IMG/VR virus record: IMGVR_UViG_3300021387_000452
Strand: one strand, 5' to 3'
DNA length: 64,000 nucleotides
Source: a virus
Lineage: Duplodnaviria; Caudoviricetes
Positions 9,311 to 63,555 of this stretch are shown one piece after another (position 1 is the stretch's first letter; every line of letters begins with the position of its first letter). The position numbers and the translations under genes were made by a program. The notes below the pieces were generated by a model. It was not told the origin of the DNA. It made no database searches and saw nothing but the letters and a program-made list of their open reading frames with translations.

Positions 9311-9401
9311 TCGGGTAGCCATTCCACCCGATTTCTAAAGATACTTATAAACCAGACTGTACTTTGAGTAAACAAAAATCACCGCACAGTGCGGTGATTT
9401 T
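9311..9401 (-). promoter_or_regulatory. Terminator-promoter-5' hairpin cassette, copy 1
   Basis: AAAATCACCG/CGGTGATTTT hairpin; -35 TTTACT, 17 bp, -10 TATAAG; leader TCGGGTGG-AATGG-CTACCCGA. Confidence 0.85.
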
Positions 9402-9408
9402 GCTTTTA

Positions 9409-10659
9409 TTAAAATATGAGTTTTCGTAGCTCAGATTCTTTTATAGTTTCACAGCCTGAAATTCCTTTGTCTAACCTCCAGCAGTCAATGACTGCATGTG
9501 TAAGTCTTAAACTTCTAGCTGAAACATTCTGACCCTGAATTGTAGCAACCCTGCCATAATAGTCTGGGTTAAGCTTAACAATCCCGCTATCATCTATAAT
9601 TGTAGCATCTTCTTTAACAAAGTCTGAGACATTTGAACAAACCGCTATTGGGTGAGTAACTGTAGACCCATCTTGCCTTTCAAGCATAACAGAAAAAACG
9701 AACCCAACAACCATGTTTTGATTTCGTGTATCATCTTTACCAATAACATAATCAGTAACAAATGCATCAAGATCTTTTGTTAAAGTATCAGCCGTTGATC
9801 TTTTTACCTTTACACAGTCAATAGTGCGTGATGATGTAGCATGATACACGGCATTTTTATTTTTGAGTACAACGCCCTCTTTATCGTTTGCTATAAGTCT
9901 GTCGAAAAAGTCTCTTTTAGCTTCTGGGTACTTATCTGTATTTTCAACAACTGGATTAATATCGCAACAAAATCCTGAATTTTTCAACATACTAGCAAGC
10001 TTAATTGCATGTGGATGACGTTCTATCCATGGTTTATTTATAAGATTATCTGAATCTAGAAGGCAGTCAAATATGATGAATTTAAGTGGGTTATCTTTTT
10101 GTATGCGTTTAGAATCTGTAGGATTAAGATTTAATAAAGCTGCTGTAGACTGAAGCTGAGTTAAACATCTTGTGTTAGTCTCTATCTCTGGATTTGTACT
10201 AATAACTTCACAGTCAAGCACAAAGTTATATGGGTAGCTAAACCCATTATCAGTAGTGTATATAGTATCAGAATAATCTTGTGGCAAATAATCTTCTACT
10301 GAATTGTTACGACTATAAAAATGGAATTGCTTTTCGCTTGCATCATATAAAATGAGCATACGACAGCCATCAATCTTCTCTTCTGCAATCCAGTCTTGAG
10401 ATTCCCAGACCATCTCTTGTTGCTCTTGTTTAAGATCTTTTATGCGTCTACATAATTGAGGGCACTCAATAGAAAGCATAAATGAAAGTGACCATGGGAT
10501 ATTGTCTCTAGAACCGTACTTCTCAGTAATGAAGTACTCACGTAATGCTTTTACAAGATCATCTTTCATCAATTTACGACCAGCTGGAACGACTGTAATT
10601 CCAAGTTGATCACATTGATTTTGCAAGTAATCTATACGACGCGCGCATTCAATAGCCAT
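9409..10659 (-). CDS. ATP-dependent DNA ligase
   Basis: Motif I EEKIDGCR, LDCEV, FIIFD, EGVVLK, KVK. Confidence 0.9.
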   Translation of the reverse strand: MAIECARRIDYLQNQCDQLGITVVPAGRKLMKDDLVKALREYFITEKYGSRDNIPWSLSFMLSIECPQLCRRIKDLKQEQQEMVWESQDWIAEEKIDGCRMLILYDASEKQFHFYSRNNSVEDYLPQDYSDTIYTTDNGFSYPYNFVLDCEVISTNPEIETNTRCLTQLQSTAALLNLNPTDSKRIQKDNPLKFIIFDCLLDSDNLINKPWIERHPHAIKLASMLKNSGFCCDINPVVENTDKYPEAKRDFFDRLIANDKEGVVLKNKNAVYHATSSRTIDCVKVKRSTADTLTKDLDAFVTDYVIGKDDTRNQNMVVGFVFSVMLERQDGSTVTHPIAVCSNVSDFVKEDATIIDDSGIVKLNPDYYGRVATIQGQNVSARSLRLTHAVIDCWRLDKGISGCETIKESELRKLIF

Positions 10660-10671
10660 AGTATAAGCTCC

Positions 10672-11328
10672 TTATTTAATGTTTTCATAAAGAAGTGTAA
10701 GATGATTTTTCTTAATAAGTCCATCTATTCCTTTACACCTGCAAGCCATATTAGCAAATTGCACAGTGTTAAATGGATGTGCTATGATATGTTTTCCTGT
10801 TCTAGTAGGAATGACTGCTACTATTTTCTTCTTAGGCTCGCAGTCTTCAACCATGTCTATATAATACTTTGTAAGCTGATCAACTGTACATACACCATTA
10901 ACACTATACCAATCTGCGTCTTCTTTATCAACATCAATAATCCAAAGCTGTTCTGAGCGTTCTACATATTTTGCAGCGCATGAATCGAATATAGAATATG
11001 GCTTATCAAAGTTATCTTGCGCAATACGATTAGCATATTCAGCCATAGAGTTTAGTGTAACTTTGTGCCAAGATTTTGCATTTACTGAAGTATAAGCTCG
11101 CATGTTAAGAGTATCACAAAGTAACTTAATTTCATTCTCATACTTATCAAAGTCTTCCATTGTTCTGATGTAATATGTTTTGAATTTATGATTGCCTGCT
11201 ATAATACGAGCATTATCTTTAGCACGACCTATAATCTCTATTGTGTAAAATAAATCAGTAAGTGAATCAAATTGATTACACCACTGAGACTGAATAAATT
11301 CTTTAATAAGTTTGAAGTTATCAGTCAT
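10672..11328 (-). CDS. Possible AEP/primase-polymerase-like protein
   Basis: WIIDVD (hhhDhD) and PTRTGKHII (GxH) motifs. Confidence 0.4.
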   Translation of the reverse strand: MTDNFKLIKEFIQSQWCNQFDSLTDLFYTIEIIGRAKDNARIIAGNHKFKTYYIRTMEDFDKYENEIKLLCDTLNMRAYTSVNAKSWHKVTLNSMAEYANRIAQDNFDKPYSIFDSCAAKYVERSEQLWIIDVDKEDADWYSVNGVCTVDQLTKYYIDMVEDCEPKKKIVAVIPTRTGKHIIAHPFNTVQFANMACRCKGIDGLIKKNHLTLLYENIK

Positions 11329-11984
11329 GGTACCCCCCTATTACAGATCAATATAGCTATTCTGCGCATGAGCTTTAGAAACATCTAAACCCATGTCATG
11401 ATATATACTAACGAGCTCTTCTCCGAAATCACTGCAAGTTAAATCTTTATTGAGTTTAAGAAGAGCATTACAGCTAGGACAATCCATAGTTGATCCAATA
11501 TGATTTAACATTTCAGACTCAGTTAAACCTGTTGAAAAAGCTTTTCCACAAATAGGACATGTACCTTTCCATTTATTGCTCATCTTCAACCTCCACTATT
11601 CTTGTTTCAATTCTCGTTTTAGAATCATTCAACCACAAAAGGAAGTTTGCCCACGTACGGCCTCTAAAAGAACTAAGCCATGCGCCAATATACGTATTGT
11701 GAATTGTGTATTGGCGCCATCCATCTGTCTGCTGCGATCTGAGTTCAATTTGGTATTTCATCTTAGTACTCTCTATCTGGGTGGGTCATATAACGATTCT
11801 TAACTTCTTTATATCGCCTATCAAGAACTTTATTGATTCCATTCCATATACCCTTAACAACAATGTCTAATTCCTTATCACTAAGATTGAATTCATTGTC
11901 AACTACAGAGACTAATCTAATGGAAGCTTTGCTTATCCTTTCGAGTCTTTCGTCCTTTGCCATATTGACCTCCATCTATGATTA

Positions 11985-12058
11985 TTGGGTGGATCCATTC
12001 CATCCAATTTATGAATTACTTATAAATCAATCTCAAGCTGGTGTAAACAAAATTCACG
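11985..12058 (-). promoter_or_regulatory. Cassette copy 2 (no upstream hairpin)
   Basis: TTTACA-17-TATAAG; leader TTGGATGG-AATGG-ATCCACCCAA. Confidence 0.8.
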
Positions 12059-12106
12059 CGTCATTAACTAACTTAAGATACTCACTGGAAGTCATGGCTA
12101 TTTCTC

Positions 12107-13297: not shown

Positions 13298-13456
13298 TTA
13301 TTTTGAAATGTACATTACCTTTTCATCATCGTTCTGTGTAAAATCAGATTCACACATTTCACCTTGAACCCATTCGTAGCCATCTTTACATGGTCCAATG
13401 ACTTCATAATCTTCGTTAAATGTTTTAAGTTTTTCAATTAATTCTTTTACTGTCAT
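13298..13456 (-). CDS. Small acidic MTVKELIEKL-family protein
   Basis: Paralog of the 52-60 kb family; SD AGGAG. Confidence 0.7.
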   Translation of the reverse strand: MTVKELIEKLKTFNEDYEVIGPCKDGYEWVQGEMCESDFTQNDDEKVMYISK

Positions 13457-13479
13457 AATGTTTTCTCCTTCTAGGTTTA

Positions 13480-13570
13480 TTGAATGGACCAATTCCATCC
13501 AATCTTGAGAGACTTATAAGCTAAGACGTAAAACGTGTAAACAAAAATCACCGCTTATTGCGGTGATTTT
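13480..13570 (-). promoter_or_regulatory. Cassette copy 3
   Basis: Full terminator hairpin, TTTACA/TATAAG, leader hairpin with apex variant GGAATTGG. Confidence 0.85.
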
Positions 13571-13920
13571 AACTATTACTCAGCCCAATCAAAAAAGAAC
13601 GTCTTATCAAGACATTCGACCTTAACAACAGGCCAACCACCAGCTGGGCCCTCTTCTTTAATTATAGAGCATTTCACTTTCTTAGTGGCATTGTCCCATA
13701 CCCACGCCTGCATATCAGCTTCAGACATGTTATTCTCTTCAGCCATTGACCACAAAATATCATTCTCCTTTAATGGAGCAAAGAATTCATCTTCACTGAG
13801 GAATTTGTTCTTATCTAGCCCAGCATATGTCTCAAGCATATCAGCCAGATCAAAGAATGATGAAATTATTTTGTAAAGTGAATTGATGTTTGCCATATTG
13901 TGATCTCCTGTGGAGTTAGT

Positions 13921-14010
13921 GGACAGGAACCATTCCCGCCCTTTATGCTGTTCTTATAAATCTTATCTGAAAATTCGTAAAATAAAATCACCGAATTATT
14001 CGGTGATTTT
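13921..14010 (-). promoter_or_regulatory. Cassette copy 4
   Basis: Leader GGGCGGGAA-TGG-TTCCTGTCC (covariant stem); full terminator hairpin. Confidence 0.85.
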
Positions 14011-19501: not shown

Positions 19502-20278
19502 TTAGGTACCTAATGAACCGTAATACGTGCAGGTGCCATTTCTGTGCTTATAAAGATCATCCCAAAGAGCTTCCCAATCAAATGAATCAACTTCATCTTT
19601 AGATGAAAACTCAACAGTTCTAGAATAATTTGCATAACGTGCGCCATACACTAAATCTGTCTCTGTATAGTGATGTTTAACAGTTGCTGTCATTGACCCA
19701 TTCATATAGCCAACATGTACATCGTTTTCATCAAGAACAAAGTCTGCTGACATTGATAATGGAGTAACTTTAACTGTAGCACCATCTGGCATGTGAGATG
19801 CAATGTCTTGAGCTAAACTATCAGCATCTGATAAAAACTCTTTTACATCTCGTCTAAACTGTGTAGCCCATTGCATTGCTTTAGTACCACACATGAATAA
19901 TGCTTTATTCTCTTCTGCTAGTGGGTAACCTAAAGCGCATCTTAAATTAGCATTATCATTAATGTCAGATCTAAACTTACCATTGTCAAAGAACTGAACT
20001 CCCCAAACAAAAACAATCTCAGACCCATCTTTATGGAAATAATTAAACGGTCTACCATCTGGCCAATCAGAGAGATTAAACTTCCATGCAGAAATGTTTA
20101 CTTTTTTACCATTACGAGCAATTGTAGTTGTATTGGCAAATTCTTTTACATCTACATCATCAGGACAAGATGAAAGAATTGCTTTAACCATCTTTGCTCT
20201 AAGAGACTCAGGGCACTCAGGTCTATTAAGTAATTTCTTTGGATCAAATTCGTACCCAGTAAAAGTAATGACTTTCAT
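19502..20278 (-). CDS. Hypothetical early protein
   Basis: ORF behind a degenerate cassette at ~20309-20397. Confidence 0.55.
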   Translation of the reverse strand: MKVITFTGYEFDPKKLLNRPECPESLRAKMVKAILSSCPDDVDVKEFANTTTIARNGKKVNISAWKFNLSDWPDGRPFNYFHKDGSEIVFVWGVQFFDNGKFRSDINDNANLRCALGYPLAEENKALFMCGTKAMQWATQFRRDVKEFLSDADSLAQDIASHMPDGATVKVTPLSMSADFVLDENDVHVGYMNGSMTATVKHHYTETDLVYGARYANYSRTVEFSSKDEVDSFDWEALWDDLYKHRNGTCTYYGSLGT

Positions 20279-20403
20279 CGATATCTCCACAATCAAAAGA
20301 ATCTCTTGTAGTAGCTGCCTTAGCTACATGAAGAGATATAAACTAACTTAGCTAATGTGTAAACACAAAAAAGTGTATCAAACTTTGATACACTTTATGA
20401 CAC

Positions 20404-27913: not shown

Positions 27914-28944
27914 CTGAGCACCTCAATCTATGGAAATAGACTAAACTATCTTCCCAGAAATATACATCGATAAAAGCTTGGGGTTGAAGCAGAATGACTC
28001 AGTTGCTGATCGTTCAGATCGTTTTATTACAACAACTAATCTACGACCAAGGCTATGACTATAGCTGAAGTAAATGTCTCTTATAGAGTAACTCGCACTA
28101 TCATCACTTATCTGCTTATCTACAGCTCTCTTGATGTAATCCATAAGCCGCTGTGAAATCTTATTAAGATCTAGATACATCGTCTTACTTATATGAGAAT
28201 GATAGTCTATATAACGCTTCGCTGAGATATCTCTAGCATGCTTTAGTTCTAATAAATCAGTTGTGAAATAATTGCTATCTATGCAGTAAAATTGACCACA
28301 ATCTTCTGTAATGATCTTATTGCCATTTACATACTTATCAGTTATAATGCTTAGTGTCTGAACAGGATAATCAAATCCAAAGATGTCTTTTTGTTTACTT
28401 ACCATTGAAATTCTAGCAGAGACTTTGTGATCTTCACCAGATGATAAATCTACAGCTCTATAAATGCTTGACGAGTAGTTGATAAAAGCTGAGCATTGGA
28501 CACGCTTGAAGCTCATACTCTCGTATGCTTTAACAACACTGTTATAGCGATTCTGAATTTGATTCATTGTGTAACCCATATCTAGCTTCCTCCAGAATCT
28601 ATTCGCCCAAGTACCAAACAAGTGACAGACTATACGATCTATCACAATCAGTAAGTATTAGCTTACTATTTATGAGAAGTCTATTATTCATATAGTCATC
28701 ACATTTAATGATAAGCTTAACTTTAGAATCAAGATTTCGCTGAATAACGTCAAGCATATCAGCTATGCTCATCATATTGTCATCAGCCCACATCTTAACT
28801 GAATCATTATCGTACTCAGTTAGATAGCTCATAATGAAATCCTGATTTACAACCAAATAGTTTGACAGAATTCTACTTAAACTAGCTGGTTCTTCTTCAA
28901 AGGATAAGATTCTATCTAAAAGACTCATTGAACTCCTCCATATA

Positions 28945-29018
28945 AAGCCAAGGAACCATTCCTTAGCTTGTGTAGTTCTTATAAACTAATTTGACCAGCG
29001 TGTAAACAAAAATCACCG
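28945..29018 (-). promoter_or_regulatory. Cassette copy 6 (half terminator)
   Basis: Leader CTAAGGAA-TGG-TTCCTTGG; TTTACA-17-TATAAG. Confidence 0.8.
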
Positions 29019-29054
29019 ATAAAAAATCCCGCCTATTCAGCGGGATGATAGAGT

Positions 29055-38136: not shown

Positions 38137-38411
38137 TTGAATCTTGCTTTTCGTAAACTGTCTATAGGCTTTCATCCAAGCTGGATTAAAACCATCAAGA
38201 ACTATCTTTGATTTAAAGTCGTTTGTCGGGACGACATCTTTATAGATATTTGAAATTGTAGAAGCATCTTCTTCAGAAAGAAGATTAAGATCAAGCCCAC
38301 CAATATAGACATCATTTTCTTTAATGACGAAGACCTTACGAGATTTCGTACCATTGGATGATGTATAGGTAAACTCTTTAATCATAGCAAACTCTCCTTT
38401 TGTTCTCTAGT

Positions 38412-38478
38412 ATTGGAAGGAACCATTCCCTCCAATCTATGAGATCTATATACCAAAAAGTTTCGCAGTCGTAAACAA
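38412..38478 (-). promoter_or_regulatory. Cassette copy 7
   Basis: Leader ATTGGAGGGAA-TGG-TTCCTTCCAAT; TTTACG/TATAGA. Confidence 0.75.
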
Positions 38479-39307
38479 GTTTTTGCAAAAATTTCACTTT
38501 TTCACCGGAACGTATGTAATCGTTTGTTTTGGCTCAAATTCTTCTGCACAACATTCACATAAGCAATCTTCATAAAACATACTTTCACTATAGGTCTGAG
38601 TAACACCATTTACTCCAACAAAGCCATCTTCACATTTATAGACTGACGTGGAAGTTTCAAACCATCTATGTTTATCAACATAAAGACCACGAGCTACTAC
38701 TTCTAAGTCAAAGTCTTCTTCAAATGAATATAAAGACCAGTACTTTGTGCTGTTCACTTTCTCAATTACTTCTGCTACTTTCATGATTATTCTCCTTATT
38801 TAGAAATTAAGATGAACCACTCATCTTAAGGTGTATACTCTCTTATGATCTCAGACTTTATTATAGTCTTGATCAATTGCCATCTATTCTGCTTAAGATA
38901 GTTACTATTTGCTATTGTCTTTAAAGCTTCCTCTTCTGATAAGAAAACTTTTGGAGAACTATTCCACCAATCATAGCCAACATCATCGCCACGATATTCT
39001 ATCCAATCGGATGATGAAGCAGTAACAAGTGGAATTAGAATAGTGTAATGAACTACGTCTACCATATAACACTCTCAATGTAAATGCTTTTTAAGAAAGT
39101 CCTCAAACTTAAGACATGATTTATCTTTGCTACTAATATGAATTATGTTATCACAGTGATGACACACAATACCTTGATCTCTGACTATCTCTTCTGTAAA
39201 CATTGATAAGCTAAACTCTTTTCCACAATATGGACATTTTGATTTGAATTGATGCTTTTCATAGTATTCTTGTTTAGTCATGATCAACCTCCAACTAAGT
39301 AACCAAA

Positions 39308-39384
39308 CTAAGGAAGTATTTCGTTCCTTAGCTTTATGAGTTACTTATAAGCCAAATCAAAAATCATGTAAACAAAAATCACCG
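39308..39384 (-). promoter_or_regulatory. Cassette copy 8 (variant loop)
   Basis: CTAAGGAA-CGAAATAC-TTCCTTAG; TTTACA/TATAAG; CGGTGATTTTTG. Confidence 0.7.
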
Positions 39385-39749
39385 AACAAAATTGCTAATG
39401 CTCAAGTATGTCTTCCACTACACGGTCTATCGTGTCCATACCAAATGGAGAGATATGGTAAACAGCTTGTTCTAAACCATAGATCTCATTTCTAAACGAG
39501 TCTATAGTTGCGGTAATCGTTCCATAACAACAGTCTTCATACTTCTTAGCAATTCTTTTCACGTGAGGTGTAAGAGCTTCTTTTAATTCTTTAACTGTTT
39601 TACACTTTAGAAATGGAGCTCTTAAGTCATCATACTGCTTATTAACGCTATATTCCAATGAGCTATAAACACCGTACTTCATAAGTAACCTCCATGAAAA
39701 GAATAGGCACATGTAAATAAAATACACGCGCCGTAGTAGTCATTTAATC

Positions 39750-46569: not shown

Positions 46570-47341
46570 TGCTATACCTACTGATGTTGTTAGACGAATC
46601 TCCGGCTATAATAAATGATTTACTATAGCCGGAGTCTGTACTAAAGAGCATCGATGATTTTTTCTGATTTGTGAGTTCTGCTCAAAATCATCATCCATAT
46701 AATAATAGATATTCTACTAATAAAGTAATGAAAAATGATTGTCTACACTAGCTTTTTTATGTAGTGCCAGCTGACTCTAAATAGTCGATCAAGTAATTCT
46801 CCAATTACTATCGGAACAATGACGAATAGTGCTGTAGCACTAACTATAAGAATTTCTTCTAACATATATGTATTTACTCCAATTGTATGTGAACTATTGT
46901 AGACATGAATTAGATCACATCTATGCTATGGCAATTGACTACTCAAAAGCCATTTTAATTTTAGATACTTACAGTATGACAGCATGTAATCAAATGTAAT
47001 ACATGCTGTCATACTGGATGTAGTTATTAATCACATGAATTGTGTTTACGATCATCTTCTCTTATTGCATTAGCAATAGATCGACCTCTCTTGATGAAAG
47101 ACTTATGACTATCAATTACTGACTCTACAATATTTTCTTTGTAGTCTTTGTCTTCAATAACAGCTTCAAGTAGATCACACTCATGATCGACATCTATTGC
47201 AAGCATATACGCTTCATGCTTGAGCTTTTCTATAGTTGTATTTATTTCATTTATTCTTGACATCTTATCATCGATTTGATGTCTGAAACTATCAGTAACG
47301 CTTACAACTACTAACATGTTCATGATTTTCTCCTGTGAAAG

Positions 47342-47367
47342 TATGGGTGGAGCCATTCCACCCATAT
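47342..47367 (-). promoter_or_regulatory. Stand-alone leader hairpin
   Basis: ATATGGGTGGA-ATGGC-TCCACCCATAC before SD CAGGAG; no TTTACA/TATAAG pair at the usual spacing. Confidence 0.65.
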
Positions 47368-47378
47368 ATAATTTTACA

Positions 47379-47951
47379 TCACTTTGCGTTCGTGATAATG
47401 AATCTAAAGTGAGCAACCATACACTCGCTAAATTCAGCAGCCAGAACTGATCTAGCATGAACTTTCTTTTCACCGTCTGTAATAACTACATCGAATAATT
47501 TTGGATCACTTGACAGAGATGAGAATTTGCATTCAGGCGTAAATCCTTTTTGATTAAGCTTATCAGCCATAGCAAATACTTTGCTATCGAACATCATGGC
47601 TGCTTTTTCAACGCTATTCTCTACAAAGCTTTCTTTACCCATGCTTATAAATTTCTCTGATTGTCTTATAAGACGTTCGAGCTTTTCGACCTCTTTACGC
47701 ATTGGGTTAGTTTGAGCAATATAGATGTCGAGATCTGCAAAACTTAATCTACCGCATGAATCTCTCTTTTCTTTGCAACAGTTGCGAATTTTATTATTGA
47801 GAGATGAAATCTTTGATTTAGCATCAGTAATCTTGTTTGGAAGATTATCATATGATCTTCCAGCACTTAGTCTAACAAGACCAAGATATGTAACTCTTGC
47901 ATTTGCAGTTTGTGATTTAACTACTTCATGGATGCTATCGAAATTACTCAT
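47379..47951 (-). CDS. Hypothetical early protein
   Basis: Start moved to MSNFD, downstream of the cassette. Confidence 0.6.
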   Translation of the reverse strand: MSNFDSIHEVVKSQTANARVTYLGLVRLSAGRSYDNLPNKITDAKSKISSLNNKIRNCCKEKRDSCGRLSFADLDIYIAQTNPMRKEVEKLERLIRQSEKFISMGKESFVENSVEKAAMMFDSKVFAMADKLNQKGFTPECKFSSLSSDPKLFDVVITDGEKKVHARSVLAAEFSECMVAHFRFIITNAK

Positions 47952-47970
47952 GTCCAATCTCCTGTGAATT

Positions 47971-48061
47971 ATTGAATGGAACCATTCCATCCAATCTGTA
48001 GTCTTTATAAGCCAGAGCCGCTTATAGGTAAATAAAAATCACCGAATAAATCGGTGATTTT
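47971..48061 (-). promoter_or_regulatory. Cassette copy 10
   Basis: All three parts present. Confidence 0.85.
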
Positions 48062-48318
48062 ATTCTACCATCTTTTCTTGCCATCTGTGTAAGTGGCAAT
48101 GTGAATTGAATTAACTTCATGGAAACTACCATTAAAGTAATCGCCTTTACTCTTAACTACAGTACTCGAACTACCGGATTTCTTTGAGATTGACTTCGCG
48201 AAATTTGTAGCTGCTCGTCTTTCATTCATGAAGAAGCTCTTGGAAGTGCAGTGAGATTCAGCAGATTCAGCATAAATAACGCGGATGATTTCGATCATTT
48301 TAACTCTCCTTGAATTCC

Positions 48319-48410
48319 ATTGGAAGGAACCATTCCCTCCAATCTTGAATGCTTTATAAGTTCTTTTAGAGAGTATGTAAACAAAAATCACCGAGTAATT
48401 CGGTGATTTT
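48319..48410 (-). promoter_or_regulatory. Cassette copy 11
   Basis: Leader GGAGGGAA-TGG-TTCCTTCC. Confidence 0.85.
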
Positions 48411-49924
48411 ATTTAGTTTTCATATTTAATAATGAACGTTGGTGTGAATCTTATTTCTACATTAAGATACTCTCCATATCCAAATAGTTTCATTACCCAG
48501 TGATGTTCTTATTTACTATCTCAACTAGCTCGTCAACGCCATCTAGTGCTTCTTTAAAGTTTTCAAGTGCTGTACTACTGACTCCATTACGGAACGTAGC
48601 GTCAGTCATTATAGTTCTTAAATGAGCTGCATCTTTTTCCATTCGCCTAGCTATACCTTTTCTTTTCTTCTTTAATTCTTCGATCATGAAGTCTATATCA
48701 CCAATGTCTCTATAGTGAGCATTAAGTGATTCAGAAATGTGATTTGCAAGCTCAATCATGTTTGTGAGATTCATTGTTCGTTCCTTTATTCATCATCATG
48801 AAGCTGCTTAGTTACATCAATTTCATTACTGTCTTTACATACATAATTAATAATGTCTTGGTTTGTTTCAAGCTTTTCACATAAATCCCACTCATTTACA
48901 TAGTATAGTTGTGATCCTTTAATAACATATAGGAACTCAATGTCTCCATGAAGATGATTTACCTCATTCATATCGTGAACATATTCATCTTCGTACTCTT
49001 CATCTTTCATTACTTCGCCAATAAGAACATCATAAACTGATATGTCTTTTACTATAATGCTCATACCAACCGAGTACAGTAGCTTTGTTCTAAGTTCTTC
49101 ACCTACTCCAGAAAGATAGCCATCAAAGTGATGGTAAAACTGATGGGCTTTATTGTCTGGTGTTACAAGAATAATGTTTGAACGAGTGCTCATACTAATC
49201 TCTCCTCTTTGTGTTATACTTCGTATTCTCTAAACAGCTCATCACATTCTAATCGAATGTCATCAACTATAGCTGCTAGCTCAAACCTAACTTCTTTATT
49301 CCAAAATGGCTTTGAATCTGGTCCACTTTTAGTTGGCTTTTCATCATAGTTCATGTCAATTCTAATATCATATTCAACTTCTTTATCTAGTGACTCCATA
49401 ATGAATTTGAACATCTCTGTATAGTCCATATCATTATCATTTGCCCATGAATCAATAAGATCTACATATTCATCAGATATAGCACTTTCTATATCTTCAT
49501 CATCTATTCCACAATCACCCATGTACGTTGAGAGAAATTCTCTTAATGTTTTGTCTTCACTCCAATCTTCTTGAAATTCACGAAGACATTTGTTTGCAAA
49601 TTCTTGATTAAGCATTCTAAACTCCATTAGTAATTAGGCGGCTATTTGGCCGCCTACGTTTATTTTCTAGTACACCAACCAGTGAGATACGCAATAACGT
49701 GATCGTCAGTTAATTCGACCATGTAAGCCCACAGTCCACATTCAGAAATTTCTACAGCGTATTTGTAAGCTTTATCTCTATCAATAAAGCCCATTACATC
49801 AAGCTGAGTATCAGATTCTGGACAAATAACAGCATAATTTACTTTGCCAGTGGATTTCATTTTCTGAATTCTTGAATCATTTGCAAATGGGTTTAGCATG
49901 ATTTTCTCTCTCCTATGCGTTTCC

Positions 49925-50016
49925 AGGATGAATCCATTCCATCCAGTTTATGAATTACTTATAAGGCATTTATGAGAATATGTAAACAAAAATCACCGAG
50001 ATATCTCGGTGATTTT
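49925..50016 (-). promoter_or_regulatory. Cassette copy 12
   Basis: All three parts present. Confidence 0.85.
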
Positions 50017-50389
50017 ACTTAACCCCAAATCCATTCGCCACGTTTAATCTGCTTGATTTCACCATCGCTGATCTTGAGCTCGACGATTTGACCTGCATAT
50101 TTGGCAACAAGCTTTTTAACGCAGGCTATCTGTTTTACAGTCAGGAACCCTTTGTCCAAATACCACTTAGCCAACCCAGAGCCCTTCTTTGCATCCTGCG
50201 GCTTAAACCCAACGCCATTATGATATTTGACATCCTCATGGCATTTTTCATCTTCAACCTGCTTATCATAAATAAACGTCAATGCGTGGATAGCGGTTGC
50301 ATCTTTTACTTCGATTTGATTGCGAAGTCTATCAATAATTTCTTTTTTGCTACTGAACTTGATTGCCATGATCATATCTCCTATGTAAG

Positions 50390-50483
50390 AACTGGTTGGA
50401 ACCATTCCATCCAGTTTATGAGAGTCTTATAAATCGATCTATGATCGATGTAAAATAAAATCACCGACTAAAATGGTGATTTT
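50390..50483 (-). promoter_or_regulatory. Cassette copy 13 (palindromic spacer)
   Basis: Spacer ATCGATC-TAT-GATCGAT (+ strand). Confidence 0.85.
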
Positions 50484-52225: not shown

Positions 52226-52432
52226 TTAAATCCAACGAATATCGACGTCACCATTGCCAAGAACATCTACCGTAAGACAGTATGGCTCTAAATCAGTAAC
52301 CTCATCTTCATAATAAGCTTCTTCGTAACCATCATCTGGGTCTACATAAACACTAGCTACATCTTTAGTAAGAGTGACTTTTGCATCTGGATTTTGCTTT
52401 GAAAGGAAGTTCATAAGCTCTTTTACTGTCAT
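52226..52432 (-). CDS. MTVKEL-family small acidic protein
   Basis: MTVKELMNFLSKQNPDAKV. Confidence 0.7.
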   Translation of the reverse strand: MTVKELMNFLSKQNPDAKVTLTKDVASVYVDPDDGYEEAYYEDEVTDLEPYCLTVDVLGNGDVDIRWI

Positions 52433-52452
52433 TGTTCTTTCTCCTTTAAGTT

Positions 52453-52522
52453 ATTGAATGGAACCATTCCATCCAATCTTGAGAATCTTATAAAACTTAT
52501 TGAGAACTCTGTAAACAAAAAT
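52453..52522 (-). promoter_or_regulatory. Cassette copy 14
   Basis: Promoter and leader abut the upstream stop codon. Confidence 0.8.
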
Positions 52523-52918
52523 TACGCATGATCTTTAAGTTTTTCTATCTCATGTAGAACAGTGTAGTCTGAGTCGAGCTCACTTTCATATACTACAATA
52601 GCGTCATCACCAAATTTCTCTTTGTAGATGATAGTATCTTTATAACATATACTTTCTTGCTCTTTATTCTCACTAGGCAAACAAAACCCAATGATTAGTA
52701 GCATTATCTGAATTCCATAGAATACAGAAAGAAAGATGATCATTTCATCCATGATTACTAGCCCACCAAACAAAAGCAAGAAAAGCAATTGTTATTACTG
52801 GTATGAATGCATCACCTAATAATGGGATTATGCATAAGATAATAATTGTAGTAATAATTGATAGAATAGCAATAGACACTAACCACAAAACTTCTCTCTT
52901 GTCCATGATTTACTCTCC

Positions 52919-54133: not shown

Positions 54134-54151
54134 GGCTTGTTCTCCTTATCG

Positions 54152-54349: not shown

Positions 54350-54363
54350 GATGCTTTCTCCTG

Positions 54364-54534
54364 CTAATCAACTAAAATGTCCAACAGCTCAAAGTCTTTG
54401 CCATCTTTTGTCTTCCAAGTTTCAGTCTTAAATGCTGCGTCATCTAAATCAAACGCTTCACCTTCAGCAGAAATGACAACTTCTAAGTTCTCGTCAAATG
54501 ATTTTAGCTTTTCAATCAATTCTTTTACTGTCAT
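54364..54534 (-). CDS. MTVKEL-family protein
   Basis: MTVKELIEKLKSFDENLEV. Confidence 0.7.
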   Translation of the reverse strand: MTVKELIEKLKSFDENLEVVISAEGEAFDLDDAAFKTETWKTKDGKDFELLDILVD

Positions 54535-54556
54535 GATGCTTTCTCCTCTATCGCTG

Positions 54557-54646
54557 CTGAATGGAACCATTCCATCCAGATTATGAAGTTCTTATAAGCT
54601 AGACTGAGAACTGTGTAAAATAAAATCACCGAATAAATCGGTGATT
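54557..54646 (-). promoter_or_regulatory. Cassette copy 15
   Basis: All three parts present. Confidence 0.85.
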
Positions 54647-56221: not shown

Positions 56222-56892
56222 ATATTACCCTCTCCTGTTGATGATACCATTATAATATCTGATTAACCACAAAGCATATTCTAATGAGTATGCTTTCGAG
56301 CCTTTTTGTTTTGGTTTTGATGTGAAATAACAATAGTCACCTATATTGTAGGTATACACTTTTATGCCCTTACTTAATCTAAATTTAGAATGGCTATACT
56401 TCTTTCGTTTTATTTTTGATTTGTGTTTTGGTACAGTTGGATGATGAAGCATAGCTATCCTTTCCTGTCAAGATCGTCATTGAATAGCATCATTCTAACA
56501 TAATGATGCTTTTTATTTTGTTTAAGTGTATAGTCGTACGCAGTGTATTTTGCTCTTCTGAATCCTTTTACATTTAAAATCTCTGAAGTAGACTCAAACA
56601 TTCCAGCATTGCCATAATTAGTTTCCTGAAAGTTGTTAAACACAAGTTCACTGTCAAAAGAATCAATGGGCAATCTCAATAACATATTGGCAAAGTCTTT
56701 TGTTGATAATTCATTCTTATATGCCTCTAGATCACCATCTCGAAACAAAGTTATGAAAGTCTTATGTAAATCCTTATTGTAATCTACATCTAAAACGGGG
56801 TGAAGTAAATTATCAGAATCACCCCATAAGACATGCCAATCAAATGGCATGTGATGTAGTATTGTTAGTGCTTTGTAGACTTTCATAATGAA

Positions 56893-58095: not shown

Positions 58096-58124
58096 AGGAC
58101 CCTCCCAAAGCATAAGCTATTTTG

Positions 58125-58292
58125 TTATAGTGAAAAAACTACTGAGTCGTCTTCAACAAAAACGTCGTCTTTTTCAACAACGCCATCATCTTTTATCGCC
58201 TCGCCGTATTCAGAAAATGATAAGACTGAATAACGAACTTCAGCATCTTGATCAGCGTGTGAAAGTAATTCCATCAAATCAGCAACTCGCAT
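58125..58292 (-). CDS. MTVKEL-family protein
   Basis: MRVADLMELLSHADQDAEV. Confidence 0.6.
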   Translation of the reverse strand: MRVADLMELLSHADQDAEVRYSVLSFSEYGEAIKDDGVVEKDDVFVEDDSVVFSL

Positions 58293-58311
58293 TTTGTATC
58301 TCCAGTGAATT

Positions 58312-58387
58312 ATTGAATGGAACCATTCCATCCAATTTATGAGAATCTTATAAACAACTATAAATTTGTTGTAAACAAAAATCACCG
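58312..58387 (-). promoter_or_regulatory. Cassette copy 16
   Basis: Half terminator next to the upstream stop; spacer ACAAC...GTTGT. Confidence 0.8.
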
Positions 58388-58390
58388 AAT

Positions 58391-59695
58391 TTATTTCCAA
58401 CTTTCCATTAAACTAGAAATGGCATCGTCAACTTTAGACGCGTGAGAATTATTTTGGTTATTGTAGTATTCATCAATCTCAGCAATTCTTTCGTCTCTTT
58501 CCTTAGACTCAAGAACTTCATATTTGCATCTTGTAAGAACGGTTTGCTTCTGACTGTGATATTCATCATGAGCTTTAATTTTACCAGACAGCTGTATGGT
58601 GGCGCCTTTGTCTAATGGGTACCACTGAGTATAGTTTGCACGATCATCTTTTACTGTAAATTCTAAGCCAGTTCCAGTAGACCACTTAAAAATATTTCCG
58701 TTGTCATCCATGAACAGATGGATATGAGAACTACCAAATTGAGTATCATATGTATGAGTATTCATATAGGTAACTTTAACAGAGATTTTATCACCTACAT
58801 TACCAACATACTCGCTGGATTTTTTATCTGAATTCTTAAGATCAATGAGCCTTTTATATTCACTCTTACGATATGATGGAATTAACGAAGCGAGAAATCC
58901 AAAGTGTCTTGCTGTACAATATCCAGCATCTATGATCTGTCTAAGATTAAATAGGTAACTAGATCTATTCAACTCTTCTTCTGATAAGCAGTGAATCCAT
59001 TCAATAGCATCAACTGCTTCACTCTCAACTCTATTTCTATCATATGCGTCCATGATGAATTTCCATGTAGCATTCATACTACTGGAAGGCTCAAATCCAT
59101 ATTGATCAATAAGTCTCTTTGCAGCTGAAACGATGTCCACTATATCATATGTTCTAATACCGTTAGACTCAAAGAATTCACCAGCGTATTTTTCTCCATC
59201 TATAATGGATTTTAGATCAGAGCTTTTCTCTTCTAACACTCTCATGTATTCACTTACTTCAGCAATAAGATTACCATCCAAACCAGATGTGAATTCTTTT
59301 ACGCATGAGGTGCCAACAACTTTTCTTTCACCAGACTCATTTTCTAATACGGTGATTGAATTGCGATAGACATTCTTATGACAATGATCACAATGAAAAT
59401 CAGTGTCTTTATATTGAGCAATCAAGCTAGCATCGTCGAAGTAGCACTGAACAATTCCATCTTTTCTTTGAACTAAGCCAAGTGAACGCCAACCATTGAG
59501 TTTAAATGTAACGTCAAGATTAAGATCAACGAGACTGACTTCAAAATTATTACCATCAACACTAACAAGCTTGGTATATGGGTCGCTTACATTAAACGTG
59601 TATGGCACTTGATTCTTTTCACATTTCTTAGTGATGCGACTAATTTTTCTGCAGATATCTTTAGCCATATTATTAAGAATCGTGTAAGTTGCCAT
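58391..59695 (-). CDS. Large early protein with CxxC and C-terminal OB-fold-like domain
   Basis: CDHCHK...VGTSC; YVGNVGDK...IKAHDEY...QTVLTRC. Confidence 0.55.
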   Translation of the reverse strand: MATYTILNNMAKDICRKISRITKKCEKNQVPYTFNVSDPYTKLVSVDGNNFEVSLVDLNLDVTFKLNGWRSLGLVQRKDGIVQCYFDDASLIAQYKDTDFHCDHCHKNVYRNSITVLENESGERKVVGTSCVKEFTSGLDGNLIAEVSEYMRVLEEKSSDLKSIIDGEKYAGEFFESNGIRTYDIVDIVSAAKRLIDQYGFEPSSSMNATWKFIMDAYDRNRVESEAVDAIEWIHCLSEEELNRSSYLFNLRQIIDAGYCTARHFGFLASLIPSYRKSEYKRLIDLKNSDKKSSEYVGNVGDKISVKVTYMNTHTYDTQFGSSHIHLFMDDNGNIFKWSTGTGLEFTVKDDRANYTQWYPLDKGATIQLSGKIKAHDEYHSQKQTVLTRCKYEVLESKERDERIAEIDEYYNNQNNSHASKVDDAISSLMESWK

Positions 59696-59714
59696 GTTCT
59701 GTTCTCCTTGAGTT

Positions 59715-59806
59715 ATCAAATGGAACCATTCCATTTGATTTATGAATCTCTTATAAACTAGACTGAGAACTGTGTAAAATAAAATCACCATATAAATGGT
59801 GATTTT
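59715..59806 (-). promoter_or_regulatory. Cassette copy 17
   Basis: Leader ATCAAATGGAA-TGG-TTCCATTTGAT. Confidence 0.85.
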
Positions 59807-59984
59807 AAGTAGTGCTACTTTATGTGAATGTAGATCCATTCAACAGAAGACTCAAACGCTTCTTTCATACTATCTATGAATGATAGAGCTTGATTTAACG
59901 TTTGAAATGTAGTAAATACAGGACTTTCTAGACTATCACTAGAATCGTGTCTAAGCACATACTCAACAACGTACATATTCTTAC

Positions 59985-60239
59985 CTAGATACATGGGTCT
60001 AGTTGAAAGTCTTGAATAGAAAGCTCTAAGCAATTTACTCTAGAATCAGCGCGGTCTACTGGAATAACTCCATCGAGATCTTTGTCATAAAATCCATAGC
60101 ATGCAATAGCAGTTTTTCCGATCATTAAATCTCTGTTTACTTCATCTTCATCAAGACTATCATATGATGAATCACAAAAGATTATGTCAAGCTCTTGATC
60201 ATACTGTGAAAGCATGCTTATTAAGTCTTTTACTTTCAT
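59985..60239 (-). CDS. MTVKEL-family protein
   Basis: MKVKDLISMLSQYDQELDI. Confidence 0.6.
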   Translation of the reverse strand: MKVKDLISMLSQYDQELDIIFCDSSYDSLDEDEVNRDLMIGKTAIACYGFYDKDLDGVIPVDRADSRVNCLELSIQDFQLDPCI

Positions 60240-60250
60240 GCTATTTTCCT

Positions 60251-61420
60251 TTATCGGTGATATTTAAGAAGAAAATTTGGAGATACGCATTTGAAGTTCT
60301 GCTGACCATCTTGTGAATAGAAAACAAACCCTTCAATATCGCCATCATCGATTGCAGATTTACATGAATCTACGTAATCAACAATTTCTTCTACTGATTT
60401 TGGAATTTTATAATCATAGTCATAGACATGAACGTGTGGTAGATCTCGATCATCACAAACCTTAATCATTTCTTTAATCGGTAATCGTTTACCATCAAAC
60501 CAAATATGAAATACCACAAAGTCGTGTTTATTGTTATTCAATGAGTAATTACGTTTTTGTACTTTGTCACCGTAAGTCTCACCTTGAATTGCAACAGTCT
60601 TTAAACCATGTACAATTTTTAGAGACTTAAGCAGTTCTTTCATATTGTATTTAGCACCTGATTCAGCCCAGATATTATTTTTGAAATAGTTTCCGCCATC
60701 TGAGTCTTTCTCAGGATTCTTAATTACATTATGTGAACCAACTAAATAATTATCCTTCTCATCAAGAATAAATGATGTAGATGCACCGTCAACTTTCTCT
60801 GTAATAATATATGTATCGTCTGAACCTAGCAATTGTGGAAGATTCTGAATGCGCTCAGAGCCAGTTTTCGGCAACCACTCCGGCCACTTACATTTTGCCT
60901 TGTCCTTTTTATGAACAAAGATCTTTGAGAGTAGCCAACGAGCAAATCTGAACTTCATTGCAAATCTAATAATAGAGCTATTAAAGAATTTTTTATGACG
61001 ATCCATTGCACGTTGAAAATCATTTACTTTTTGTTTTGGCTGATTCTCACATACTGGCTCAGGATCATACTTCTCTACGTGAAGTTTATCAGTAACAAAG
61101 TCACCTTCTTTGCAGCCTTTCAGTTCTGGGAAATCAGACAATGGTAAGATTAGTCCCTGACTAACAGTCTTACACATCTTCTGCGTTAAAACGCGATACT
61201 TACGTTTTTCCATAAATGAAAAACGCTCGTCATTAGAAGGCAGAAGAGAGTCAATTTCAAAATAAACTACAAGGTCACCAACTTTAATTTCTTTTGGTGC
61301 AACACACCACCACCCAAGAACTTTACAGCTGTGTACACGATCATATCCATCAAGGTCTTTTGCCTCAGCTACTTTAACAATGTAAGCAAGTTCGCGTTCA
61401 TTAGTTTTAGGGTTTAACAT
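60251..61420 (-). CDS. ATP-dependent RNA ligase (DRB0094/Rnl2-like)
   Basis: VVYFEIDSLLP, SQGL, ERIQN, TEKVDGAS, QGETYG, EGFV, FKCVS. Confidence 0.88.
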   Translation of the reverse strand: MLNPKTNERELAYIVKVAEAKDLDGYDRVHSCKVLGWWCVAPKEIKVGDLVVYFEIDSLLPSNDERFSFMEKRKYRVLTQKMCKTVSQGLILPLSDFPELKGCKEGDFVTDKLHVEKYDPEPVCENQPKQKVNDFQRAMDRHKKFFNSSIIRFAMKFRFARWLLSKIFVHKKDKAKCKWPEWLPKTGSERIQNLPQLLGSDDTYIITEKVDGASTSFILDEKDNYLVGSHNVIKNPEKDSDGGNYFKNNIWAESGAKYNMKELLKSLKIVHGLKTVAIQGETYGDKVQKRNYSLNNNKHDFVVFHIWFDGKRLPIKEMIKVCDDRDLPHVHVYDYDYKIPKSVEEIVDYVDSCKSAIDDGDIEGFVFYSQDGQQNFKCVSPNFLLKYHR

Positions 61421-61974
61421 GTTTAATTCTCCTTTACTGAAGTCCGTCTTCAAAGTTACAGATACTAACGTTTATTTCTGTTGCCAAATCTTCTACCGCT
61501 TTTCTAGCAATTCGTAATTTATCGTAAAGACCATCACTAATATAATGTGAACTAATAGCACAATTCAATCTTAATAATGAAGACAATAAATCAGAACATA
61601 ATCTCTTTGAATCCATTAAACAAGCTATCTCGTAAGCATCTTTAATTTGCTTGTTCTGCATATTACTAATCTCCTATTGCGCCATAAGAAGCTGATCAAC
61701 GTCAGCTACGTAAGCCCATTTGAGATCTGCAATTTCTATGATGCAGTACCCGTTATCAACATCACCAACAAATGGTAGCCATTCATCACATCGAGTATAG
61801 ATCATCTCGTCACCACAAGCAAACCCGCCTTCTTCCAAGTCTGGCATACCAAGAATGAATTTGTCATAGCCATATTCACCGCCATAGGTAACATGTATTA
61901 AGCAAAGATCTTCTTTTTCAGGGAGATGATTTTTACGATCGTTCCATTTCATTTTTAAGTCTCCTTTTAAGTTT

Positions 61975-62050
61975 ATTGAATGGAACCATTCCATCCAATT
62001 TATGAGAATCTTATAAACCACTTTATAGTGGTTGTAAACAAAAATCACCG
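61975..62050 (-). promoter_or_regulatory. Cassette copy 18
   Basis: Spacer AACCACT-TTAT-AGTGGTT (+ strand). Confidence 0.85.
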
Positions 62051-62576
62051 TGATCAGAATTAAAAGCTATAATATGATCGTCTGTAAGATTCTTAATAGT
62101 CGACTCTAATTCAGATAGATTAAATACATCACCAAAAGTGTCATTGACAAAGTCAAGAATATGATGAACTGTGGATGGCGCAGAAGTTTTCCACGTGATT
62201 ATCATTCTATCATGAACTGCTTGAATATAGATCTCACACCCTACATTAGTAAGATATGAATCCCAATTATCAGCAAGTAATCTTGCGTCAGCAGAATTTA
62301 TATTTGAAACCCAAAGCTCTCTCATAGTAACCACATATATGAGTAAGTGGGGTGAATAAATCACCCCTTGTTATTAGTCATCTTCAACCTCTTCAATGTC
62401 GTAGTATTCATCGAATGGCATTCCAAGTTCATCTTCCATTGATGCTTCGAAATCGTCCGACATGCTCAGATAGCATTCTTCGCAAAGTGCAAGATTGGAA
62501 TTGCGTGATACATAGGCGGCCTGATTAAAGCAACACATGCAAGTTCTGCGTTTCATTGTAAGCTCCTTTGTGGTTT

Positions 62577-62667
62577 ATTGAATGGAACCATTCCATCCAA
62601 TCTTGAGAATCTTATAAATCACTATGAAGTGATTGTAAACAAAAATCACCGACTTAAGTCGGTGATT
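62577..62667 (-). promoter_or_regulatory. Cassette copy 19
   Basis: Spacer AATCACT-ATGA-AGTGATT (+ strand). Confidence 0.85.
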
Positions 62668-63010
62668 CCATTATTTATTCGTCATCAATGCTCCATTCCA
62701 TCCAGTACTTAATACCGTCAATGACCATTTCAGTCATAGGCCATCCGCAATTAAAATCCACACCAGTGACTTTGAATTCTACCTGATTATCCAGATTCTT
62801 AATAATAGTATTCACTGCGCGGTCTTCACTGACCTTAGCACCGTACGCTGCATCCGGAATAAAAGCATTTGTCGGATCATTTAATTCCCTAAGAATTTGT
62901 TCTAGACTTTCTGTCTGGAACCATGTCTTAAGAATACCAAAGCAGGTGTTGCGCTTTTCGAAATTATGAAGATCACTAATAGAAATTTCCATGACTACCT
63001 CCAGTAATTT

Positions 63011-63086
63011 ATTAGATGGAACCATTCCATCTAATTTCTGAATCTCTTATAAGCCAAGATTCATTTTGCGTAAACAAAAATCACCG
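63011..63086 (-). promoter_or_regulatory. Cassette copy 20
   Basis: Leader ATTAGATGGAA-TGG-TTCCATCTAAT. Confidence 0.85.
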
Positions 63087-63461
63087 ATTAAGCTGAAGCT
63101 TTTTGCGCTGGAAGCTCTCCAAATACCATAGACCCATTTGGAGTGAATGTGATTCTACGACCGTTTGGAGATACTATCAAACATCTATTAAGAGCCACGC
63201 TATTCATCTTAATGTAAGATAAGCATCCGCAAAGTTCATCTCCAGAATGAACCGCTCTATAAGAATTGAACTCAGTAAGAATGTAGAGAACGAATTTGCT
63301 CATTGATTACTCCATTTAGCCAATATGTGAAAATAGAAAGTTGAGAGCCATACCAATAACATCGGCAAGTTCTTCATGATAGATGCAACCAAGAAGAACG
63401 AATGGAATAAGCATGAAGCCCTGAATATCATCTTTCGTCATTTTTAACTCTCCATAAGATC

Positions 63462-63555
63462 ATTGAATGGAACCATTCCATCCAATCGATAATGCTCTTA
63501 TAAACCAGACTGAGAAGCATGTAAAATAAAATCACCGTCTAAGACGGTGATTTTT
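63462..63555 (-). promoter_or_regulatory. Cassette copy 21
   Basis: All three parts present. Confidence 0.85.

Follow-up and report, generated by a model that had tools for sequence, protein, structure and literature searches.

Why a phage genome should carry the same intergenic unit about 20 times, each time with a short hairpin set between a promoter and a ribosome-binding site, is the question raised by a 64,000-nt stretch of the virus record IMGVR_UViG_3300021387_000452 (hereafter the window, meaning the whole stretch analysed). The repeated unit is a cassette comprising a terminator or its remnant, a sigma-70-like promoter, a leader hairpin, a Shine-Dalgarno (SD) sequence, and a start codon. 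The preferred answer, to which we assign a probability of roughly 55%, is that the unit is an early cassette of the promoter-plus-stem-loop (PeSL) type carrying a 5'-terminal mRNA stem-loop that would shield the transcript 5' end and whose apex is probably read by a factor. On this reading the source is an uncultured jumbo phage of the T4 superfamily, and the cassettes are provisionally termed early from their host-type promoters and their location away from the capsid gene.

Analysis of the first listed copy, read on the minus strand, reveals a terminator hairpin, GTTTAC, a 17-bp spacer, TATAAG, a short hairpin, GGAG, and ATG in that order. This layout is regular across the window copies and bears out the unit as it was first proposed. 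In 19 window copies the -35 element is TTTAC followed by A, G, C, or T and then by a 17-bp spacer, while the -10 hexamer is TATAAG (n=16), TATAAA (n=2), or TATATA (n=1). The base ahead of TTTACA, earlier given as G or A, is in fact G or T, with A found once. The promoter precedes the hairpin by 15-18 nt in 20 of the 21 window cassettes; measured from the -10 hexamer, the spacing is 15-18 nt to GGAATGG and 50-63 nt to the start codon, and GGAG with its ATG begins ~10 nt after the hairpin in all window cassettes. When relatives are included, an SD sequence and start codon follow the hairpin in 73 of 79 distinct copies (21 of 21 in the window), and a -10 hexamer lies at a fixed distance from it in 71 of 79. 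The final T of the -10 element is absent from all 19 window hexamers; among relatives TATAAA is the commonest form, and a minority end in T. A generic sigma-70 scan called none of the cassette promoters because the -10 element lacks the canonical T at position 6, a feature that may reflect the host sigma factor or a phage-modified polymerase.

Upstream of the promoter, a complete terminator (AAAATCACCG/CGGTGATTTT; -12 to -17 kcal/mol) is present in 12 window copies and ends 1-3 nt before the -35 element. Seven window cassettes retain just its 3' arm (CGGTGATTTTT or a degenerate form), with no complementary 5' arm. Because these seven copies carry the 3' arm alone, the repeated unit begins inside the terminator, in its loop. 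The lone arm looks like a scar of exchange between cassettes, or else like a segment that doubles as an upstream promoter element.

The hairpin itself was delineated with a covariance model built from 19 aligned copies with an 11-pair stem, and the whole window was searched with filters off. This search returned 19 copies, all on the minus strand, scoring 37.4-63.9 bits, with the best other match at 15.5 bits. All 20 occurrences of the heptamer GGAATGG are on the minus strand, with none on the plus strand; 18 of them lie in cassette context, and the remaining two (62699 and 11845) lie inside open reading frames (ORFs) without a hairpin. Two cassettes with other loops bring the 19 family members to 21 cassette hairpins. 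The preliminary description had listed about 20 copies, and all 20 of its coordinates hold, 18 of them coinciding with model matches. The site at 39308 is a real cassette that keeps a family stem under a different loop, and the site at 20309, called degenerate, is a cassette with a terminator and promoter of its own and an unrelated hairpin (Table 1). That list overlooked one copy (47342-47366), which has no recognisable promoter. The hairpin element is therefore real and restricted to the coding strand. In a scan of the window with Rfam, just the tRNAs reach the gathering threshold; sub-threshold matches in 61.9-63.6 kb fall on or beside terminator and promoter sequences rather than leader hairpins, except for one snoRNA-model match that covers a whole cassette at 16.7 bits against a gathering score of 61.

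Covariation in the stem, which the preliminary description had asserted and proposed as a check, was examined in two sequence sets, with counts taken per cell rather than per evolutionary event. The first was a model-guided alignment of 59 matches from the window and four IMG/VR relatives, 52 of them distinct. In it 90.6% of cells pair, compared with 80.6% after shuffling, with 0 of 500 shuffles reaching the observed figure, and both sides change in 8 of the 11 pairs. Sliding the 3' partner by 1-3 columns lowers pairing to 31-61%. An alignment of separately fetched metagenome loci (37 matches, 30 distinct) behaves in the same way, with 90.8% of cells paired, both sides changing in 8 of 11 pairs, and 0 of 500 shuffles reaching the value. 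Selection thus acts to keep the stem paired. The model's apical A-U pair, which would close a UGG triloop, is present in just 27 of 51 distinct copies; because it is not conserved, the element is best drawn as a 10-bp stem capped by a pentaloop A-UGG-N. Of 52 distinct rows, 39 have this loop, and all four bases occur at N. The conserved parts are thus the GGA/UCC stem top and the A-UGG-N loop, the remaining stem sequence being free but compensated. The near-invariant GGAATGG apex noted earlier is indeed conserved, and these two modules describe it better than the heptamer does. Moreover, this hairpin dominates the fold in each of the predicted leaders (-10 to -16.5 kcal/mol, z -1.8 to -3.1), and the SD sequence is unpaired in most predicted leader folds.

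The pattern of variation also bears on whether the element acts as RNA or as DNA. Among non-Watson-Crick cells, G-U on the sense strand outnumbers A-C by 30 to 11, an excess that fits an RNA made from the coding strand. A DNA operator at +15 to +25, in which a dimeric repressor binds the partly palindromic GGAA-TGG-TTCC and shuts off the early promoters jointly, would account for the apex being a short inverted repeat and for its constant position immediately after the promoter, and coordinated shut-off of this kind would be useful to a phage. An operator, however, needs no pairing in the lower 6-7 bp, which vary within one genome yet stay complementary, and it gives no reason for the skew toward sense-strand G-U; in relatives, furthermore, the repeat is GGA-N5-TCC with an asymmetric AUGGA centre. 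We regard the operator as improbable. Still further down the scale, and very improbable, is a hairpin of single-stranded DNA that serves either as a promoter, like those of the N4 virion polymerase, or as a signal in replication or recombination. Covariation cannot separate an RNA from a DNA hairpin, and N4 early promoters resemble a short stem with a conserved 3-5-nt loop. Against this, the element stands on the coding strand ahead of the SD sequence, at a constant spacing from a well-formed -35/17-bp/-10 promoter, and each G-U pair of the sense strand would correspond to an A-C mismatch in the template strand. The phage lineage is moreover T4-like by its Gp23 capsid protein, and T4-like phages use the host polymerase with phage factors.

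Conservation beyond the window was assessed in related contigs obtained by protein searches of IMG/VR and JGI metagenomes together with one degenerate pattern scan, counting model matches at E <= 0.01 within each scan. Copies were found in G001 (72 kb; 17 copies, 21 at E <= 1), G004 (91 kb; 13 copies, 18 at E <= 1), G002 (65 kb; 1 copy), G006 (204 kb, 95% complete; 16 copies), G007 (156 kb; 18 copies), G008 (72 kb; 11 copies), the partial loci L114/L118 (5-10 copies), L117 (20 kb; 10-11 copies), and the partial locus L122 (one further copy). At least 8 related uncultured phage lineages therefore carry the hairpin, with 11-21 copies in each of six contigs scanned whole. In G006 all 16 copies lie within a 62-kb region (113-175 kb) on both strands, minus mainly at 113-137 kb and plus mainly at 141-175 kb, and the Gp23-type capsid gene at 55 kb lies outside it. 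A more distant clade, which includes G003 (252 kb, 94% complete) and whose members have 434-aa proteins 44-54% identical to that of the window, shows no comparable system and no more than a single palindromic copy, which lacks the UGG loop; behind the consensus promoters of G003 a search for a similar leader hairpin found none.

Comparison with G001 and G004 separates the leader from the rest of the cassette. Upstream of TTGACA-17-TATAAA their cassettes have A-tract elements and another hairpin, and they lack the CGGTGAT terminator, while keeping the start region CAUAAAUUG and the apex GGA-AUGG-N-UCC. Because promoter and upstream element differ, the leader is better conserved than the remainder of the cassette and independently of it, and within-genome duplication cannot explain the hairpin, in agreement with the earlier view that it is not simple duplication. 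Stems before the 434-aa gene, at orthologous positions, read CAAAUGG, UAAAUGG, UGAAUGG, AUGAGG, and GAAAGG, with the differences compensated; the window stem at that position (AAAUCAAAUGGA/UCCAUUUGAU) likewise shows compensated changes relative to its orthologues. At L117:12516 the UGG loop sits on a wholly different stem. The upstream module of G001 and G004 (e.g. L001:3540-3620, L106, L107) consists of a 9-bp hairpin UCAAAUGAG...CUCAUUUGA, then CTTTGAAAAAATTTC, a second A-tract, and TTGACA, and may represent an attenuator plus an UP-like element. Both contigs also carry a promoter-less hairpin copy directly after RtcB.

The most serious rival owes that standing to the fact that copies within one genome are not independent: the hairpin may be a hitch-hiker in a PeSL-like homology patch, its apex kept uniform by gene conversion, such that any stable hairpin would do. 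Window blocks bounded by cassettes map to non-adjacent places in G001 or are absent there, as such exchange predicts, although some window/G001 breakpoints fall away from window cassettes. The seven half-terminator cassettes are expected after exchanges within the unit, copies with other loops persist, and PeSL recombination is documented (PMC2839356). In several metagenomes DNA contigs break or cross-join at cassettes; the unitig cross-joins are repeat artefacts and do not count as evidence of mini-circles, and the goes-back and skip joints at cassettes, with sides of 22-39 nt, are repeat artefacts as well. Homogenisation inside one genome, however, cannot explain identity between genomes, and lineages with diverged -35, -10, and upstream elements still share the apex and the CAUAAA start region. 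The UGG loop retained at L117:12516 and the compensated stem changes, which indicate selection on an RNA or single-strand fold beyond DNA identity, point the same way. We consider the hitch-hiker unlikely, though less so than any other alternative. Gene-sized indels in the cassette region are also seen in a related strain (runs X5 and X10; a 10-kb contig ~93-96% identical to window 54000-63900): it lacks 56194-56446, which removes a basic 75-aa ORF (56225-56452), has ~360 extra nt at 60239/60252, and has ~400 nt in place of 62335-62363.

Among cultured phages none proved close. Megablast of 5 kb of the window against GenBank phages gave no match, tblastn of the DNA ligase and RtcB for cultured relatives gave only matches below 60% identity, and blastn of one promoter-to-hairpin stretch (53 nt) against 50,697 GenBank phage records gave chance matches within coding genes alone. 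The exact 21-mer of the commonest hairpin was not found in IMG/VR.

According to the preferred reading, host RNA polymerase would use the sigma-70-like promoter behind the intrinsic terminator or its remnant and would start at the A of the conserved CAUAAA, 7 nt after the -10 element. With the 5' end so predicted, 2-4 nt would remain unpaired ahead of the stem. The sense-strand stem-loop, with its 10-bp compensated stem, GGA/UCC top, and A-UGG-N loop, would then form within 2-5 nt of the transcript 5' end, where it could protect the message against decay pathways that begin at that end, which in a Gram-negative host means RppH and RNase E. Additionally, the stem would keep the leader from pairing with whichever ORF is plugged in behind it, making the cassette portable and its expression robust in any context. 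The invariant apex would serve as a putative recognition site for a trans-acting factor, of phage or host origin, that handles the early mRNAs as one set; a factor is invoked because structure alone does not explain the identity of GGA/UCC and A-UGG-N across lineages with differing promoters.

A promoter-proximal hairpin on every unit might alternatively act in antitermination of the nut or put type, the nascent hairpin, with or without a phage protein, letting polymerase read through terminators for delayed-early expression. The region is terminator-rich (15 intrinsic terminators found in 47-64 kb versus 6.1 expected), and the initial transcribed region contains the -10-like CATAAA, which recalls the sigma-dependent pause elements of lambdoid late promoters. 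Read-through is, however, unneeded where nearly every unit has its own promoter, and G001 and G004 keep the hairpin with no canonical terminator before each promoter. The A-UGG-N loop is not the GNRA-like pentaloop of boxB, and no boxA-like element was seen on reading the aligned leaders, for which no dedicated search was made. Furthermore, the phage element is a single 25-nt hairpin, whereas put RNAs are two-hairpin elements of ~70 nt. The N/boxB-type function suggested in the preliminary description is accordingly not favoured, and antitermination appears distinctly unlikely.

Several observations weigh against 5'-end shielding with a recognised apex. The start site is placed solely by distance from the -10 element, and the unpaired nucleotides ahead of the stem may still let RppH act. 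The -10 elements that lack the position-6 T, in the window and in most relatives, are missed by the generic scan, and 8 of 79 copies have no promoter in front. Other loops survive at 39327, 20311, L004:888, L001:5955, and L005:11240, and the AUGG loop is dispensable because copies with other loops persist. Gene conversion among non-independent copies could keep the apex uniform without selection. Lastly, no RNA-binding protein was recognised among the window ORFs with Pfam, PHROGs, and one PDB sequence search.

A narrower proposal, which we put forward tentatively and hold less probable than the shielding model, casts the GGA/A-UGG-N/UCC apex as the operator of a dedicated RNA-binding factor, phage-encoded or borrowed from the host, with 20-30 cassette transcripts forming one post-transcriptional regulon. 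Such a factor could mark the transcripts as self during host mRNA destruction, or could switch all of them off at the early-to-middle transition. Candidates for this role were sought by several routes. Pfam scans of 114 window ORFs and PHROGs searches of 20 ORFs gave no RNA-binding domain, and neither did a PDB sequence search with the conserved Zn-ribbon protein at 52919-53401. A phyletic screen for G006 ORFs common to other hairpin genomes and absent from hairpin-less G003 returned 40 early-region ORFs, too many to inform. RegA and RegB (PF01818, PF10715) are not among the Pfam families reported for the window ORFs and were not found in five relative contigs (one 94% complete, four 30-68%), a weak negative in that control genomes were also silent.

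Other readings of the hairpin were rejected on structural grounds. A CsrA site does not fit, as the GGA is paired and the window loop reads GGU. A mini-ORF initiated at the loop AUG is contradicted by a frame and stop that vary between copies, the stem is too short for an RNase III site, and the lower stem is not conserved as a CRISPR-repeat mimic would require. T-box-like pairing of UGGN with a tRNA NCCA end was dropped, the 5-nt loop being too tight.

The individual cassettes are listed in Table 1. A family of paralogous small acidic genes (~60-70 aa, beginning MTVKEL) occurs at 54364-54534, 52226-52432, and 13298-13456, as well as in L001 near 6300 and 6520, and every copy of the family sits immediately behind a cassette.

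Table 1. Cassettes of the window, all on the minus strand, with positions of their parts and covariance-model scores.
Coordinates	Type	Terminator, or stretch noted for 3'-arm-only cassettes	Promoter	Hairpin	ATG	Bits	Remarks
63441..63554	full cassette	63554-63528	63525-63497	~63486-63462	63441	57.6	SD present
62992..63087	3'-arm-only	63046-63087	63074-63046	63035-63011	62992	60.9	
62556..62667	full cassette	62667-62641	62639-62611	62601-62577	62556	54.1	
61952..62051	3'-arm-only	62010-62051	62038-62010	61999-61975	61952	63.1	minimum free energy -11.7, z -2.9
59695..59806	full cassette			stem AAAUCAAAUGGA/UCCAUUUGAU		55.6	before 434-aa phrog_2319-like gene
58292..58388	3'-arm-only	58347-58388	58375-58347	58336-58312	58292	63.9	heads RtcB-containing unit
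54534..54646	full cassette	54646-54622	54619-54591	54579-54557	54534	54.7	ATG opens MTVKEL... small ORF
52432..52528	degenerate 3' arm (GCGTAATTTTT)	52487-52528	52515-52487	52477-52453	52432	56.2	
50375..50483	full cassette	50483-50457	50454-50426	50416-50390	50375	53.4	
49899..50016	full cassette	50016-49988	49986-49958	49944-49926	49899	47.9	shorter stem, loop AAUGGAU
48298..48410	full cassette		-10 TATAAA	stem UUGGAGGGAA/UUCCUUCCAA	48298	49.9	
47951..48061	full cassette		-35 TTTACC, -10 TATAAA	47995-47971	47951	56.9	
47323..47379	hairpin, SD, and ATG		no recognisable -35/-10	AUGGGUGGA-AUGGC-UCCACCCAU, 47366-47342		41.4	-16.0 kcal/mol
39281..39385	3'-arm-only	39344-39385		39327; stem GCUAAGGAA/UUCCUUAG, loop CGAAAUAC instead of UGG			same stem as copy 28962
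38390..38475	cassette without CGGTGAT arm		-35 TTTACG, -10 TATATA	stem UUGGAGGGAA/UUCCUUCCAA		49.3	directly 3' of tRNA cluster
28928..29050	other full terminator, then CGGTGATTTTT arm	CCCGCU...GGCGGGAUUUUUU; stretch 28978-29019	29006-28978	AAGCUAAGGAA-UGG-UUCCUUGGCUU	28928	37.4	
20278..20400	degenerate cassette relative	own terminator	GTTTACA 20364-20358	GUAGCU-AAGGC-AGCUAC, 20327-20311	20278		unrelated hairpin; SD present; read from sequence
13896..14010	full cassette			GGGCGGGAA-UGG-UUCCUGUCC	13896	40.8	two G-U pairs, z -3.1
13456..13570	full cassette			loop altered to AUUGG (GGAAUUGGUCC)	13456	44.6	ATG opens MTVKEL... small ORF
11963..12060	degenerate 3' arm (GCGTGAATTTT)	12019-12060	12047-12019	12008-11984	11963	54.5	
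9291..9401	full cassette	9401-9374	-35 TTTACT	UCGGGUGG-AAUGG-CUACCCGA	9291	41	

The window genes all lie on the minus strand and include RtcB, an RNA ligase, an ATP-dependent DNA ligase, several DNA methylases, ThyX, and thymidylate synthase; the window itself does not span the capsid gene, which is of the Gp23 family in the hairpin-bearing relatives G006 and G007. An RNA repair set stands among the early units, comprising RtcB (56893-58113, 215 bits), the RNA ligase with a PHA02142 OB domain (60251-61453), and an ATP-dependent DNA/RNA ligase-like gene (9409-10659). One ORF within 48065-63945 weakly matches the anti-sigma-28 factor FlgM family (E = 2.7e-4). Twenty tRNA genes are clustered at 34562-38065 on the coding strand, three of them with odd anticodon loops and unassigned by ARAGORN, and ~840 nt inside the cluster (36437-37272) contain no tRNA and short ORFs only. 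A second ORF-poor stretch of ~1.4 kb (44800-46176) has no minus-strand ORF of at least 55 aa; it is overlapped by the sole 2-kb bin with positive GC skew (44001-46000), and a 144-aa plus-strand ORF (44097-44531) lies just ahead of it.

A Gram-negative host is implied by an Rz1-like outer-membrane spanin at 20404-20745 (LysC family, 52.6 bits, lipobox LISGC), which overlaps a coiled-coil partner with a hydrophobic N-terminus at 20645-21046. GTDB species genomes searched with a 23-nt degenerate hairpin pattern and with the 434-aa protein gave no match, so neither query hints at the host. Gut or rumen metagenomes of cattle, sheep, and goats, drawn from 13 studies, contain the phage DNA. One metatranscriptome run, from the sample that is probably the source, yields 100%-identical contigs on the region, which show neither strand nor ends; one of them continues into another cassette's promoter, possibly through DNA carry-over or an assembly artefact.

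Collectively, these data indicate that large phages can equip their promoter/terminator shuffling cassettes with a third module, at the RNA level, which is here conserved more strongly than the promoter across an uncultured clade of ruminant-gut jumbo phages. The natural copies, over 100 of them with compensated stems under a fixed loop, suffice for defining a new cis-acting RNA family, and they permit direct tests of 5'-end protection, insulation of a portable unit, or regulon-wide tagging. Should a factor read the loop, the phage would have a new means of distinguishing its early messages from the RNA of the host; if none does, the hairpin would still be a natural context-independent insulator of the 5' untranslated region, of possible use in expression design.

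Among known systems, lambda N/boxB and HK022 put share with the phage element a promoter-proximal RNA hairpin on early transcripts in a terminator-containing region. Lambdoid phages have one or two such sites per genome, in contrast to ~20 here, each unit with its own promoter, and no N-like protein was identified. T4 RegA and RegB provide the model for a regulon-wide post-transcriptional tag, being phage factors that read a short RNA feature near the ribosome sites of ~30 early mRNAs and shut them off (PMC3014915). RegA sites, however, are unstructured and AU-rich, and RegB cleaves GGAG in the SD sequence itself (PMC3014915); a dedicated factor in the present phage would be their structured-RNA counterpart, reading a portable tag that travels with each shuffled gene. 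A further comparison is with the 5'-terminal stem-loops that stabilise E. coli mRNAs; RppH requires at least 2 unpaired 5' nucleotides, and stem-loops of this sort in Gram-negative bacteria retard the decay that depends on RppH and RNase E (PMC3997798). The ompA and papA leaders are examples (Emory, Bouvet and Belasco 1992, cited in PMC3997798). As in those leaders, a stable hairpin is predicted here a few nucleotides from the 5' end, followed by an unpaired ribosome-binding region. In the account of them given there, the ompA and papA stabilisers work by structure alone with no conserved loop, whereas the loop and stem top of the phage element are conserved across lineages and the element is itself repeated, with 11-21 copies per relative contig scanned whole and 19 model matches in the window.

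The closest relatives of the cassette as a whole are the PeSLs defined in the T4-type phages RB49/phi1, T4/PST, and KVP40/nt-1, which consist of an AT-rich stretch, a stem-loop terminator, a sigma-70-like early promoter directly after it, an SD sequence, and ATG, cluster in hyperplastic regions, and act as recombination linkers (PMC2839356, PMC4122927). The window and its relatives present the same repeated intergenic terminator-promoter-SD-start unit, clustered in the non-structural, variable part of a T4-type genome (113-175 kb in G006) and flanking blocks of genes that relatives have shuffled, gained, or lost. The T4/PST -35 consensus TTTACW matches TTTACA of the window, and the promoters read TTTAC(A/G/C/T)-17-TATAA(G/A) or TATATA in the window and TTGACA/TTTACA-17-TATAAA/T in relatives. 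Promoter, upstream stem-loop, SD and start codon, T4-type variable region, and association with exchange are thus all found at the sequence level. The PeSL comparison drawn in the preliminary description was apt, given that the hairpin-bearing relatives encode a Gp23-type capsid and that the blocks between cassettes are shuffled. In contrast to the window cassettes, PeSLs as published have no second stem-loop between promoter and SD sequence, and the -10 element without its final T is a further difference, seen in every window copy and in most copies of the relatives. The covarying leader hairpin, whose loop is fixed, is the most strongly conserved module and is retained even in cassettes that lack the terminator. 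At the level of sequence, the cassette is otherwise of the known PeSL kind, and the leader hairpin between promoter and SD sequence is its new part.

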